The notes beneath the pieces were generated by a model. That model saw nothing but the letters and a program-made list of their open reading frames with translations. It had not been told where the DNA came from and did not search any database. 64,000 nt of DNA from NCBI GenBank assembly GCA_020853105.1, contig JADYZM010000061.1:13410-77409 (forward strand), in the 5' to 3' direction. This stretch comes from Flavobacteriales bacterium. GTDB taxonomy: Bacteria > Bacteroidota > Bacteroidia > Flavobacteriales_E > Vicingaceae. Position 1 is the stretch's first letter, and every line of letters begins with the position of its first letter. Of this stretch, positions 16,462 to 19,800 are shown in pieces. A program made the translations under genes and the position numbers.

Positions 16462-17709
16462 CTATTTACTAAATTCCAAAATAGTTTTCTTTATAATTGA
16501 AACGCAATCCAGAAGATGCTCTTTATTCATCACTAAAGGTGGTGCAAAACGAATAATATTACCGTGTGTAGGTTTTGCCAGTAATCCGTTATCTCTCAGT
16601 TTCATACAAATATCCCAAGCCGTTGAACTATCTTCAGTATCATTAATTACAATAGCATTAAGAAGACCTTTTCCTCTAACCAATTGTACCAACGGTGATT
16701 GGTCAACCAAGGTCTGCATCTCTTTTCGAAACAATTCTCCTAAAACTTTTGCATTTCCTGCTAAATTTTCCTCTTTAACAACCTCTAAAGCAGCAATAGC
16801 TACCTTTGCAGCAATTGGGTTACCACCAAAAGTGGAACCATGCTGACCAGGTTTTATAACATTCATTATATTATCATTAGCTAATACAGCTGAAACGGGA
16901 TAAACACCTCCCGACAATGCTTTTCCTAAAATTAACACGTCCGGTACCACATTTTCATAATCGCAAGCTAACAGTTCACCTGTTCTTGCAATTCCTGTTT
17001 GAACTTCATCGGCTATAAATAGAACTCCGGCAGCTTTACACAATTCATACGCTTCTTCCAAATATCCATCGTTTGGCACATATACACCTGCTTCTCCTTG
17101 AATAGGCTCTACTAAAAATCCAACCACATTATCATCTCTAAGTGCCTTTTCCAATGCATCAATATTATTGTATGGAATTTTAATAAATCCGGGAGTAAAC
17201 GGTCCGAAATTAGTGTAAGAAGTTGGATCGCTGCTAAAAGAAACAATCGTAGTAGTTCTTCCGTGAAAATTACCTTCACAAACAATAATTTTTGCTTTGT
17301 TTTCTTCAACACCTTTTACTTCATAACCCCACTTTCTTGTAAGCTTAATTGCTGTTTCAACTGCTTCAGCACCAGTGTTCATGGGTAAAACTTTATCATA
17401 GCCGAAATATTCGGTAACATATTTTTCATAAACACCCAACACATTGTTATAAAAAGCTCTTGAAGTAAGAGTAAGCGTTTGTGCTTGTTCTATAAGTGCC
17501 TTAATTATTTTGGGATGACTGTGTCCTTGATTTACAGCAGAATACGCTGATAAAAAGTCATAATATTTTTTCCCTTCTACATCCCAAACATAAACACCTT
17601 CTCCTTTAGCCAATACCACGGGCAAAGGGTGATAGTTATGAGCCCCATACTGGTTTTCCAGATTAATCAATTGACTTGATGTAGATTTTGGTTTTGTCAT
17701 TGTTTCCAT
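16462..17709 (-). CDS. rocD: Ornithine--oxo-acid aminotransferase
   Basis: [40 protein letters not shown] lysine in [17 protein letters not shown]. Confidence 0.95.
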
Positions 17710-17801
17710 AGTTTATAGATTTAAAAAGGCTCATCGCGGAGAGCAAATATCCTTTCCTCATTGAAACAACATAAAATGTTATTAATGGAGAGAAATCATC
17801 C
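17710..17801 (-). promoter_or_regulatory. Candidate structured 5' leader of rocD
   Basis: Starts just downstream of a TAACTTTG -7 element. Contains a bulged hairpin with inner stem AATAACAT/ATGTTGTT, then a GCTC/GAGC hairpin followed by CTTTTT. Confidence 0.35.
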
Positions 17802-17805
17802 AAGA

Positions 17806-17813
17806 CAAAGTTA
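17806..17813 (-). promoter_or_regulatory. -7 promoter element for rocD
   Basis: TAACTTTG on the minus strand. Confidence 0.55.
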
Positions 17814-17825
17814 ACAAAAGAAACT

Positions 17826-17833
17826 TAATTTTG
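17826..17833 (+). promoter_or_regulatory. -7 promoter element for the DUF559-rlmD transcript
   Basis: TAATTTTG(C) on the plus strand, back-to-back with the rocD element and ~13 bp before repeat copy 1. Confidence 0.5.
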
Positions 17834-17846
17834 CTAAAACTTTTAA

Positions 17847-17916
17847 ACTCTCCCCTAACTCCTCTCTTGAAAGAGAGGGGAAAGAATAACAAAAGTTATT
17901 CAGGGGTGAGTTAAAA
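17847..17916 (+). repeat. Structured REP-like direct repeat, copy 1
   Basis: ACTCTCCCCTAACTCCTCTCTTGAAAGAGAGGGGAAAGAATAACAAAAGTTATTCAGGGGTGAGTTAAAA; an outer stem plus two hairpins. Confidence 0.9.
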
Positions 17917-17933
17917 TGCTGAATTCTTCCTAA

Positions 17934-18353
17934 ATGAAAGAAAAGAAAACCATTACCCAACTTGCAAGAGATTTAAGAAAAAATCAAACTGCTTCAGAAA
18001 ATTTATTATGGCAGAACTTAAGAAATAGAAAACTTAATGGCTTTAAATTTAACAGGCAATTTCCTATAGTTTATGGTCGTAATTTTGATGGGACTTCACT
18101 CTTTTTTATCGCTGATTTTTATTGCCATGAAAAGAAATTAATAATAGAACTTGATGGAAAAATTCATGAATTTCAGAAAGAATACGATAAAGAAAGAGAT
18201 ACTATATTAAACAAACTTGGTTTAAGCGTTATTAGAATTAAAAATGAAGAACTTGATAAATTATCAGAGGTTTTGGGAAAAATTAGAAACATACTCTCCC
18301 CTAACCCCTCTCTTGAAAGAGAGGGAAAGATTATCGTAGATAATCAAGGGTGA
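17934..18353 (+). CDS. DUF559 family (Vsr-like PD-(D/E)XK) endonuclease
   Basis: ARDLRKNQTASENLLWQNLRNRKLNGFKFNRQFPI, FIADFYCHEKKLIIELDGKIH, YDKERDTIL..LGLSVIRIKNEE. The last ~19 codons read through repeat copy 2. Confidence 0.9.
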   Translation: MKEKKTITQLARDLRKNQTASENLLWQNLRNRKLNGFKFNRQFPIVYGRNFDGTSLFFIADFYCHEKKLIIELDGKIHEFQKEYDKERDTILNKLGLSVIRIKNEELDKLSEVLGKIRNILSPNPSLEREGKIIVDNQG

Positions 18354-18360
18354 GTTAAAA
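18293..18360 (+). repeat. Structured REP-like direct repeat, copy 2
   Basis: ACTCTCCCCTAACCCCTCTCTTGAAAGAGAGGGAAAGATTATCGTAGATAATCAAGGGTGAGTTAAAA; 60/70 identical to copy 1 by manual alignment. Confidence 0.9.
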
Positions 18361-18372
18361 AAGTAAAAACTT

Positions 18373-19800
18373 ATGTCGATAAAAAGAGGAGAAACCATAG
18401 AAGTTGAAATTACAGATGTAGCTTTTGGAGGTAATGGAATTGCAAAATTGGAAACAGAACAAGGAAATTTAGTCGTTTTTGTTCCAAATACATTTACTGG
18501 TCAGCGAGTTAAAGCCCGAATTACCAATAAACGCAAGAAACACGCTGAATGCAAGTTGGTTGAAATTATAAATAAATCGCCGTTGGAACACAAAGTACCT
18601 TACCAACCTATTTCAGGTGCACCATATATTTCTCTCCCCATAGAAGTACAAAAATCGTTTAAAATAGATTCTTGTTTAAACATTTACAAACGTATTGGAA
18701 AGGTTGAAAAAATTGAACAGATTTTTGATGAATACATTGAATCTCCTGAGTTTTACCATTACCGCAACAAAATGGAATATTCATTTAGTGCAATTGGTTA
18801 CGATTTAGAAAAAAAGGAAGAATTTGACGGCTTTGCATTGGGTTTTAAAAAACGTGGAACTTGGTGGATAGTGGAGAACTTAGAAAAAGATTCAGGTATG
18901 TTTGACGCCGAATTTGAAGACAAATTAAAATTAATTAAAAATTTCTGTATTAAAACAGGGCTTCCTGCTTGGCATCCACCAAAAAAAGAAGGTTTTTTCC
19001 GTTTTTTAATTGTTAGAAAAAGCTACCAAAACAATCAATTACTAATTAAATTAGTAACCAGCGATACAAACATTGGTTTATTCAATTTCAATGCTTTTGC
19101 AGATTATATTGTTGAGTTGTTTGGCGACAGAGTTGCTGGTGTTTTGCATACCATAAACAACGATATTGGCGACAATGCTCAATCTCGTTTAGGAAACGAA
19201 ACTATACTTTATGGTAAATCAACCATTTCAGAAAATCTGTTGGGATTGTCGTTTGATGTAAGTATGCAAAGCTTTTTTCAAACCAATCCAAAATGTGCCG
19301 AATTGTTATACCAAAAAGCAATAGCTTATGCTATGGAAAACAATGACACTATTGCTGAAGGTGTTGTAATGGACTTGTTTTGCGGAACAGGAACCATTGG
19401 TCAGTTAATTGCTGCTAAAACTAACACACGCGTTATTGGAGTTGATATTGTTGAAGAAGCCATAGAAAATGCCAAAGAAAATGCAATTAAAAACAACATT
19501 AAAAACGTGGAGTTTTTTGCTGCAGATGTCAATAAATTTTTATTTGAATATCCGCAATACAAAAACCAAATTGGCACCATCATTTTAGATCCGCCTCGTG
19601 CAGGAATTGCTCGTAAAGCATTGCTAAAAGTAATTGAATTAAATGCTAAACAAATTGTTTACGTAAGCTGTAATCCATCAACACAGGCTCGCGACATGGA
19701 AGATTTGTTTGCAGCAGGATATCAATTAAAAAAGTTAAGTTTAGTCGATCAGTTTCCTCATACAGCACACGTGGAAGCGGTTGCATTATTTGTAAAATAG
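18373..19800 (+). CDS. rlmD: 23S rRNA (uracil-C5)-methyltransferase RlmD/RumA with TRAM domain
   Basis: N-terminal TRAM, YRNKMEYSF, SFFQTN, DLFCGTGTIG, LDPPRAG, YVSCNP (catalytic Cys) and DQFPHTAHVE. Confidence 0.92.
   Translation: MSIKRGETIEVEITDVAFGGNGIAKLETEQGNLVVFVPNTFTGQRVKARITNKRKKHAECKLVEIINKSPLEHKVPYQPISGAPYISLPIEVQKSFKIDSCLNIYKRIGKVEKIEQIFDEYIESPEFYHYRNKMEYSFSAIGYDLEKKEEFDGFALGFKKRGTWWIVENLEKDSGMFDAEFEDKLKLIKNFCIKTGLPAWHPPKKEGFFRFLIVRKSYQNNQLLIKLVTSDTNIGLFNFNAFADYIVELFGDRVAGVLHTINNDIGDNAQSRLGNETILYGKSTISENLLGLSFDVSMQSFFQTNPKCAELLYQKAIAYAMENNDTIAEGVVMDLFCGTGTIGQLIAAKTNTRVIGVDIVEEAIENAKENAIKNNIKNVEFFAADVNKFLFEYPQYKNQIGTIILDPPRAGIARKALLKVIELNAKQIVYVSCNPSTQARDMEDLFAAGYQLKKLSLVDQFPHTAHVEAVALFVK

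Follow-up and report, generated by a model that had tools for sequence, protein, structure and literature searches.

The repeats closest in kind to the one described here are the BoxC/PIT/TMECO elements of Escherichia coli, "intrastrand triplex" repeats that follow the pattern CCCTCNCCC N3-6 GGGNGAGGG N3 GGGNGAGGG and in type A have TTA as the second loop (Holder et al. 2015, PMC4666352, which also cites the earlier work of Bergler 1992 and Hoyne 2000). Published work gives no protein partner for them. The subject of this analysis is a folded repeat of ~65 nucleotides (nt), here called Y, found in a 64,000-nt stretch (the window) of contig JADYZM010000061.1, part of a Flavobacteriales metagenome-assembled genome (MAG) from wastewater or activated sludge (genome G000 below). 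Two direct copies of Y bracket a gene for a DUF559 nuclease, and gene and copies together form a small cassette inserted ahead of a host gene. The analysis directly supports a repeat family with a conserved fold and a strand asymmetry, an insertion polymorphism, a recurrent linkage of gene and repeat, and purifying selection on the gene. Nuclease and repeat may form a partnership comparable to that of the REP/RAYT systems.

As in the REP/REPIN-RAYT systems, a single-copy nuclease gene is bracketed by a folded repeat that is dispersed in tens of intergenic copies. The repeat type co-varies with the enzyme clade, the repeat is patchy among relatives, and one strand is apparently selected. There are three differences – the enzyme here has a PD-(D/E)XK Vsr fold and is not a HUH tyrosine transposase (Y1), the flanking copies are direct while those around RAYT genes are typically inverted, and another REP belongs to the RAYT-like genes found in these genomes. 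The protein has the fold and family of the Vsr and Vsr-like endonucleases (E. coli Vsr, Caulobacter VsrA (PMC12907096) and the structure 3HRL), but it is encoded inside a repeat-bounded insertion and in a genome without a C5-methyltransferase.

Two other kinds of element share features with Y. The integron attC site is conserved in fold over sequence, has one active strand, keeps its unpaired bases and stands in a fixed orientation relative to its cassette's open reading frame (ORF). Y shares the conservation of fold over sequence, the apparently single active strand, the kept unpaired bases and the orientation, but it comes without an integrase and without a cassette array, and the analogy with attC was rejected because the profiles of the Y flanks contain no R''/R' cores. 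Transcribed repeats of the miniature inverted-repeat transposable element type (ERIC/IRU, Correia, RUP, BOX) are short, folded, intergenic, co-transcribed with their neighbours and orientation-dependent. Y is likewise a short, folded, intergenic repeat with a dependence on orientation; to our knowledge none of these repeats flanks a dedicated nuclease gene or has mirror-repeat arms.

Two copies of Y with the same fold

The locus consists of the following features, with coordinates in the window.

17826..17833, + strand: putative promoter box TAATTTTG, Bacteroidota -7-type (TAnnTTTG), assigned from the known Bacteroidota consensus; last block in common with empty sister sites
17835..17846, + strand: left edge of the cassette, the run between the box and copy 1; the insertion (~535 bp) runs on to ~18370
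17847..17911, + strand: Y copy 1 (R1 model, 89 bits); C-arm 17847-17855, hairpin 1 17859-17880, hairpin 2 17884-17901, G-arm 17903-17911, T-T 17851/17907
17916..17933, + strand: putative five-codon upstream ORF ATGCTGAATTCTTCCTAA (MLNSS*), its stop abutting the DUF559 ATG; called from sequence only
17934..18292, + strand: DUF559 (Vsr-fold, PD-(D/E)XK) nuclease gene, 139 amino acids, the part ahead of copy 2; full ORF 17934-18353
18293..18355, + strand: Y copy 2 (R1 model, 74.1 bits); C-arm 18293-18301, hairpin 1 18306-18325, hairpin 2 18329-18345, G-arm 18348-18355, T-T 18297/18351; contains the DUF559 stop TGA, 18351-18353
18373..19800, + strand: rlmD/rumA-type gene for a TRAM + m5U methyltransferase protein (Pfam), the host gene; the cassette lies in its promoter-to-start gap
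16462..17709, - strand: class-III aminotransferase gene (rocD-like; PF00202 at 2e-124, and synteny), the divergent left neighbour

The copies at 17847-17911 and 18293-18355 are direct repeats of the ~65-nt element, both on the + strand, and they share a 19-nt core that occurs twice in the window against an expectation of 0.00. Both copies have ACTC[T]CCC(C) and (G)GGG[T]GAGT as outer arms, in which two T residues face each other at the same position, and CCTCTCT-TGAA-AGAGAGG as hairpin 1. For hairpin 2, copy 1 has GAATAAC-AAAA-GTTATTC where copy 2 has GATTATC-GTA-GATAATC, a difference of two A-T to T-A flips and of the loop. ViennaRNA folds both into a three-way junction, at -33.5 kcal/mol for copy 1 (z = -5.6) and -26.9 kcal/mol for copy 2 (z = -4.6), and none of 200 shuffles matched the folding energy of either copy. 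The minus strands are nearly as stable (-29.1 and -28.2 kcal/mol). These results bear out the original prediction, made from the window alone, that both copies form a three-way junction with a T-T mismatch, a shared hairpin 1 and a hairpin 2 with two compensated pair changes. Its claim that the linkers are invariant was right for TAAC, which is identical; the base that follows is T in copy 1 and C in copy 2, and copy 2 has one G fewer before AAAG.

Y as a dispersed repeat family

A covariance model of Y (R1, 24 base pairs) was made from ten clean copies and a hand-written structure, and was used to search 87 genomes of the family. It gave matches in G020 (at least 60), G010 (59), G017 (47), G018 (33), G077 (21) and G078 (9), and 20 of the 25 genera searched had no Y copies. 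G000, which is 100% complete, has three. The third is a solo copy between two minus-strand genes on contig C25, where the neighbouring gene has no close orthologue in the genus and thus allows no comparison with an empty site. Y is intergenic in every copy, in many cases with a co-directional gene 20-150 nt away on either side.

Neither Rfam nor a scan for terminators, both suggested in the original prediction, accounted for the element. The best Rfam hit had E = 0.37 and 19.6 bits against a gathering score of 55.5, and all hits were chance-level matches to eukaryotic families. An intrinsic terminator was rejected, as there are no terminator-like sites on either strand between 17600 and 18500 and the flanks 3' of Y are A-rich, not T-rich. 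Y is a dispersed folded repeat, not a private RNA gene.

Some copies occur in larger units. In genus g5 there are short tandem arrays of a variant Y (CCTCTCCCC...GGGGTGAGG, with GCCC/GGGC as hairpin 2), with a period of 155-159 nt and 2.6-3.5 units (L029 1480-2036, L072 1184-1586 and L038; genome G010). In genus g6 some copies lie inside a repeat unit of ~138 nt, TTGACACAAATTAAAG..TTTCACTAATTATCACAA-Y-TGAAA.. (L136 and L149 ~1461-1598 in G020; also L129 and L135), so composite forms of the repeat exist.

Conservation as structure and as sequence

The covariance analysis used 101 R1 matches, of which 95 were distinct. Across the 95 copies, 98.4% of 2259 base-pair cells were paired, and when partners were slid by 1-3 columns pairing fell to 44-64%. 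The observed covariation was reached by none of 500 column shuffles. The covariance model built from the copies and their homologs, another of the checks suggested in the original prediction, thus gave significant covariation, and it is located in hairpin 2. All seven pairs of this hairpin have double changes, with 98.9% of cells paired. There are at least ten different stems, all of them paired: GATTATC, GATTAAC, GAATAAC, AACTATC, AAGTTATC, AATTAAC, AATTATC, GCCACGC, GATTGCC and GCCC. The stems GTCAAAC and GTCGACC are found in Chryseobacterium. Hairpin 1 and the outer stem are nearly invariant, with a double change in only one of 17 pairs. Compensatory change is thus genuine and general, although only one helix of the three has its support.

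The T-T position shows a different pattern. Among 104 copies, the bases in the C-arm and the G-arm were T and T in 82, A and T (a perfect pair) in 15, A and A in two, and T and A in none. The G-arm GGGGTGAGT is almost invariant, and the pyrimidine arm is ACTCTCCCC. This is unlike a stem selected for pairing. The proposal that selection acts on single-stranded structure is supported by the covariation of hairpin 2 and by the strand biases described below; hairpin 1 and the arms are conserved in sequence.

Arms that mirror hairpin 1

Read on the minus strand, Y is CCCCTCTCTT-tcaa-GAGAGGGG-TTA-GGGGAGAG, that is, a C-rich arm, a loop, a G-rich arm, TTA and a mirrored G-rich block. Each Y arm is the mirror image of the purine strand of hairpin 1. 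The generality of this relation was measured in 3-kb loci around 81 stand-alone DUF559 genes from many phyla, which contain 435 mirror-asymmetric pyrimidine/purine hairpins. A hairpin passed if a 3' arm 1-6 nt off gave purine-motif triads, with G facing G and A or T facing A, at no less than 88% of positions. Mirrored arms passed in 168 of 435 cases and non-mirrored arms in 29 of 435, while random positions passed in 76 of 8700 (0.9%). About 25 hairpin sequences each have their own matching arm, for example AGGAGAAGG with GGATGAGGT, AAGGGAGG with GGAGGGTT and AAAGGGGG with GGGGGATT. Covariation of this mirrored kind does not come from Watson-Crick pairing and hence is not explained by pairing in RNA; nor does RNA form triplexes of the purine motif, according to work quoted in PMC4666352. 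The mirror relation also gives a reason for the T-T mismatch – each arm is a legal third strand for its own DNA strand (T·AT versus A·AT), so that complementarity between the arms is not needed at that position.

By its layout Y can be classed with the BoxC/PIT type of "hairpin plus third-strand" element, its loop containing an additional hairpin. Both Y and BoxC/PIT/TMECO have a C-rich arm, a loop of 3-6 nt, a G-rich arm, a 3-nt loop (TTA) and a mirrored G-rich block, and in both there is the same T-for-A change after the G run (GGGGTGAG in Y, GGGTGAGGG in E. coli). They are alike, too, in being strictly intergenic, present in many copies and unevenly distributed among close relatives. The literal TMECO consensus, CCCTCNCCC N3-6 GGGNGAGGG N3 GGGNGAGGG, had no matches in the whole genome of G000, where the Y stems are CCCCTCTCTT/AAGAGAGGGG, and Y is therefore a relative in kind and not a TMECO. 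Y also differs in its extra, covarying hairpin between hairpin 1 and the plus-strand G-arm and in its strong orientation bias, TMECO being reported to have no such bias (PMC4666352). Unlike BoxC/PIT/TMECO, Y could form a three-way junction, since a C-arm and a G-arm are both present. Contact between gene and repeat is found in E. coli K-12 as well, where the DUF559 gene ycjD ends with "...SPSP*" inside a CCCTCTCCC hairpin, and TMECO no. 9 lies ~170 nt downstream.

Linkage of Y with the DUF559 gene

The protein encoded between the two copies matches Pfam PF04480 at 1.1e-31 and the Vsr-like "endonuclease-like protein" of PDB entry 3HRL at 3.9e-15. The gene is present once in G000, and the last 20 codons and the stop of its ORF lie inside Y copy 2. 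The ratio of non-synonymous to synonymous substitution rates (dN/dS) is 0.08-0.21 against the genes of G077, G079 and G020, and judged by these ratios the gene is intact and under purifying selection. The flanking Y copies of G000 and G077 are still ~85% identical at a dS of ~0.9, with the copy-1 and copy-2 variants of hairpin 2 kept.

Nearly all stand-alone DUF559 genes examined in the family have such hairpins on both sides. The same is true of most of ~80 relatives from the Bacteroidota, Cloacimonadota, Ignavibacteria, Calditrichota, the Candidate Phyla Radiation and others. In most DUF559 subfamilies the two ends are inverted halves (hairpin-TTA-G-arm, gene, C-arm-TAA-hairpin), while Y joins both halves around one hairpin 1, and two direct copies of it flank the gene. 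Y copies of the R1 type flank DUF559 in a Chryseobacterium gleum MAG (L199), on the strand opposite to the gene, and antisense copies are also found at L190 and L197. When the repeat type was mapped on the DUF559 tree, 37 changes were required, against a mean of 54.5 and a minimum of 49 in shuffles. The two DUF559 paralogues of G077 are from different clades and are accompanied by different repeat types.

The RAYT-like genes of these genomes were rejected as a partner of Y. Genomes with Y have Y1_Tnp genes and two genomes without Y have none; the genes are flanked by another REP (GTCGCCCCTACGGGGC type), none by Y. Two such loci (L266 1-1400 and L268 1300-1900) lie amid their own REP (..ATGTCGCCCCTACGGGGCT.. 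/ AAGTCCCGTAGGGAC), with inverted copies flanking the gene in L268, and look like a classical REP/RAYT system beside Y/DUF559.

In a Chitinophagales MAG (L186 ~1880-2150), four copies of the element follow one another downstream of the DUF559 gene. Hairpin 1 of each copy stands between two extra hairpins (GTCTCGGC/GCCGAGGC and GCTCCGC/GCGGAGC), an arrangement that would give a four-way junction version of the element.

Strand asymmetry and the possibility of an RNA element

G·T wobbles outnumber A·C mismatches in the stems of Y by 46 to 18 – by 14 to 2 in hairpin 2, 17 to 4 in the outer stem and 15 to 12 in hairpin 1. In duplex DNA equal numbers would be expected, because both arise from the same C:G to T:A transition. 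Between co-directional genes there are 53 sense and 11 antisense copies, and after copies with similar flanks were merged into 59 loci the numbers were 32 sense and 7 antisense (p = 7e-5); both biases come from copies that are related to each other, from an alignment fitted to the model and from genes called as long ORFs. The sense bias and the G·T excess together mark the sense single strand as the selected form. A selected single-stranded fold fits either RNA or the non-template DNA strand, and the two lines of evidence differ in direction, as the mirror rule points to DNA and the orientation bias points to transcription.

Copy 1 had been predicted to form the 5' end of a transcript, which its position right after the putative TAnnTTTG-type box fits. 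In a metagenome run labelled as complementary DNA (cDNA), contigs cover 17718-18263 and 18339-18642. These are assembled contigs only, giving no transcript ends and no strand, and they begin upstream of the promoter and have a flat depth like that of DNA, so they may reflect carry-over of DNA.

Y could be an element that works at the RNA level, transcribed in mRNAs and giving, by its three-way junction, a signal for processing, stability or translation to the DUF559 mRNA and to other operons, with the link to the nuclease secondary. The strong sense bias relative to flanking genes, the tolerance of G·U over A·C, the intergenic and often co-directional setting, the place of copy 1 at the predicted transcript start and the cover by cDNA-labelled contigs would all be accounted for, and as Y lacks the shape of a terminator, read-through into rlmD is possible. 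What this explanation leaves aside is the relation of arm and hairpin 1, maintained through ~25 hairpin sequences in a mirrored form that Watson-Crick RNA pairing does not explain, and a T-T (in RNA, U-U) that is the majority state and never becomes T-A. The copies antisense to DUF559 (L199 in Chryseobacterium, L190 and L197), the inverted half-elements at the ends of most other subfamilies and the lack of an Rfam match are further points against it, and the cDNA contigs lose weight if DNA was carried over. On balance we consider an RNA-level role for Y somewhat unlikely.

The original prediction had offered either a structured RNA or a recognition hairpin in single-stranded DNA. The latter was the better of the two guesses, and the idea of a dedicated non-coding RNA (guide or scaffold) of this locus was not supported, in view of the 3 to at least 60 copies per genome, the restriction of covariation to hairpin 2, the mirror-rule arms, the uncompensated T-T and the antisense copies. 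The interpretation was in this sense half right – a single-stranded fold is selected, but it belongs to a dispersed BoxC/PIT-type repeat that brackets a mobile DUF559 cassette.

The cassette as an insertion

The arrangement of rocD on the minus strand and rlmD on the plus strand is conserved across the genus. In G086, G085 and G078 the intergenic region between them is 147-149 nt long and reads ...GATAACTAAATTTGC|CGCTTATTATTTAGTAT|ATG, with no repeat and no DUF559. G000 and G077 are filled at the same point, with an insertion that starts 1-2 nt after the TAnnTTTG-type box and ends ~15 nt before the rlmD ATG; in the window the right edge is uncertain by ~15 nt (18356-18372). The block ending ...AAAGATAACTAAATTTGC is conserved in G086, G085, G078 and G077, and the version in G077 is Y-DUF559-Y-Y. 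RlmD of the empty G086 is no further from that of the window (95%) than is RlmD of the filled G077 (94%). Because the empty sites contain no solo Y, the whole unit was either gained or lost precisely.

The cassette occupies three different loci, one in G000 and G077, one in G079 and one in G020, always upstream of a host gene and in sense with it. In G020 it lies between exonuclease-III-like and rarA-like genes. In the window it would borrow the host promoter, being just 3' of the putative -7 box of rlmD. The upstream ORF MLNSS*, which appears as MQNSS* in G077, suggests a candidate leader peptide or translational coupling to DUF559. Exact matches to the window came from metagenome contigs 15 kb and 5.6 kb long, which makes the cassette stable in present populations; deletion joints were not found.

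Another metagenome contig (runs X11 and X19) joins 18362, at the end of copy 2, back to 17854, at the start of a copy-1-like element, with 16 other letters between (TATAAATTACTCTCCT). This could be a tandem Y-Y in a related strain, or the junction of a tandem or circular cassette. On the rocD side, the intergenic region (17710-17815) is a block conserved across the genus, GGCTCATCxCGGAGAGC ... CCTTTCCTC ... GGAGAGAAATCATCC, a conservation that supports a probable cis-regulatory leader for rocD.

DUF559 could also be a free-standing selfish nuclease gene of the homing type, or a passenger, with Y as its landing pad or vehicle and not its product, and with the solo copies as recombination scars like solo long terminal repeats. 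Vsr-fold homing endonucleases exist, for example I-Bth0305I. Recombination between direct repeats would leave one solo copy in the same orientation, and the sense bias of solo copies would follow from the need of cassettes for transcription from a host promoter. Both the excess of solo copies over genes and the genomes with solo copies only would be explained. The empty rocD/rlmD sites show no solo Y, however, so at this locus the cassette did not land in a resident copy. The at least 60 solo copies of one genome would require as many cassette insertions and deletions, and the difference in hairpin 2 between copy 1 and copy 2 in both G000 and G077 means that the copies have not recombined or been homogenised since the species split. 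A homing gene inserts into one conserved target gene or site and leaves empty alleles in relatives; empty alleles exist here, but the cassette is at three unrelated intergenic loci in different genomes. We regard this explanation as unlikely.

That the protein is an ordinary solitary T:G mismatch-repair endonuclease of the Vsr type, with the repeats unrelated, is very improbable – its fold matches the Vsr-like 3HRL and such a role has been proposed for VsrA, a Caulobacter DUF559 protein tied functionally to a cytosine methyltransferase (PMC12907096), but the 100%-complete G000 has no match to the C5-cytosine methyltransferase family (PF00145), G086, G076 and G083 have C5-methyltransferases and no stand-alone DUF559, and the hairpins beside DUF559 genes are found again from phylum to phylum and vary with the protein tree.

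A proposed partnership of nuclease and repeat

The explanation we prefer is a partnership of the REP/RAYT kind between the Vsr-fold nuclease and the repeat that flanks its gene, with the folded sense strand of Y as the substrate. DUF559 would recognise this strand where it is exposed, as the non-template strand in transcription or during replication, and would nick at or near the arms of Y. Repair of the break by copying would then account for the spread or upkeep of solo Y and for movement of the cassette, as in REP/REPIN-RAYT systems but with an unrelated nuclease. Linkage, co-variation, mobility and selection lead to this reading, and from them we infer both the binding or cleavage of the repeat by the nuclease and the copying step. 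We hold it tentatively, with confidence that falls somewhat short of even.

Several observations weigh against the partnership. The orientation bias fits a role in RNA at least as well. Clade and repeat type could co-vary through co-inheritance of a linked unit. There was no convincing target-site duplication at the cassette edges or at solo copies; short AT-rich matches at the edges (TAAAACTT / AAAAACTT) were considered as one and rejected as unconvincing, being absent from solo copies. The presence of only one solo copy in G000 gives little sign of recent spread. G017 (47 copies), G018 (33), G016 and G086 have Y, and no stand-alone DUF559 was found in them, a negative that is weak for G017 and G018 because assemblies of 220 and 380 contigs would lose a 380-bp gene between repeats. 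G000 also contains eight more hairpin-plus-mirrored-arm motifs of other sequence types, without a matching DUF559. These eight motifs are on contigs C68 (9 kb), C77 and C23, with four of them on C68.

A wider proposal casts DUF559 proteins in general as structure-specific nucleases, each with the folded repeat that accompanies it as natural substrate. They might recognise the junction or triplex that hairpin 1 makes with the GGGGTGAG arm, and perhaps also the T-T mismatch, much as Vsr reads a T:G mismatch. Nuclease and repeat would then be a second, independent symbiosis of this kind in bacteria, like REPIN/RAYT but run by a Vsr-fold enzyme, and the nuclease would be the missing protein partner of BoxC/PIT/TMECO, with the sense strand as the active strand of Y. 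We consider this possible but doubtful.

No published description of a pairing of DUF559 with a repeat was found; the mentions found were a table of predicted inversion targets that includes DUF559 (PMC9881135) and papers on BoxC/TMECO, in which no protein is named. New from this locus are the three-way-junction variant Y, the direct-repeat layout, the strand-asymmetry statistics, the clean empty sites, the RAYT control and the missing methylase.

Significance

BoxC/PIT/TMECO-type repeats have been known since the 1990s and have been linked to genome instability, never to a protein, and DUF559 is among the commonest "unknown" nuclease domains. The locus is an unusually clean case of the two together, with a minimal cassette, exact empty sites and an extra hairpin that supplies real covariation. 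If the nuclease does not act on Y, Y is still a well-supported new family of structured repeats in the Flavobacteriales. If it does, the two would represent a new class of enzyme-driven genomic repeat, and would explain a widespread source of rearrangement in bacterial genomes.

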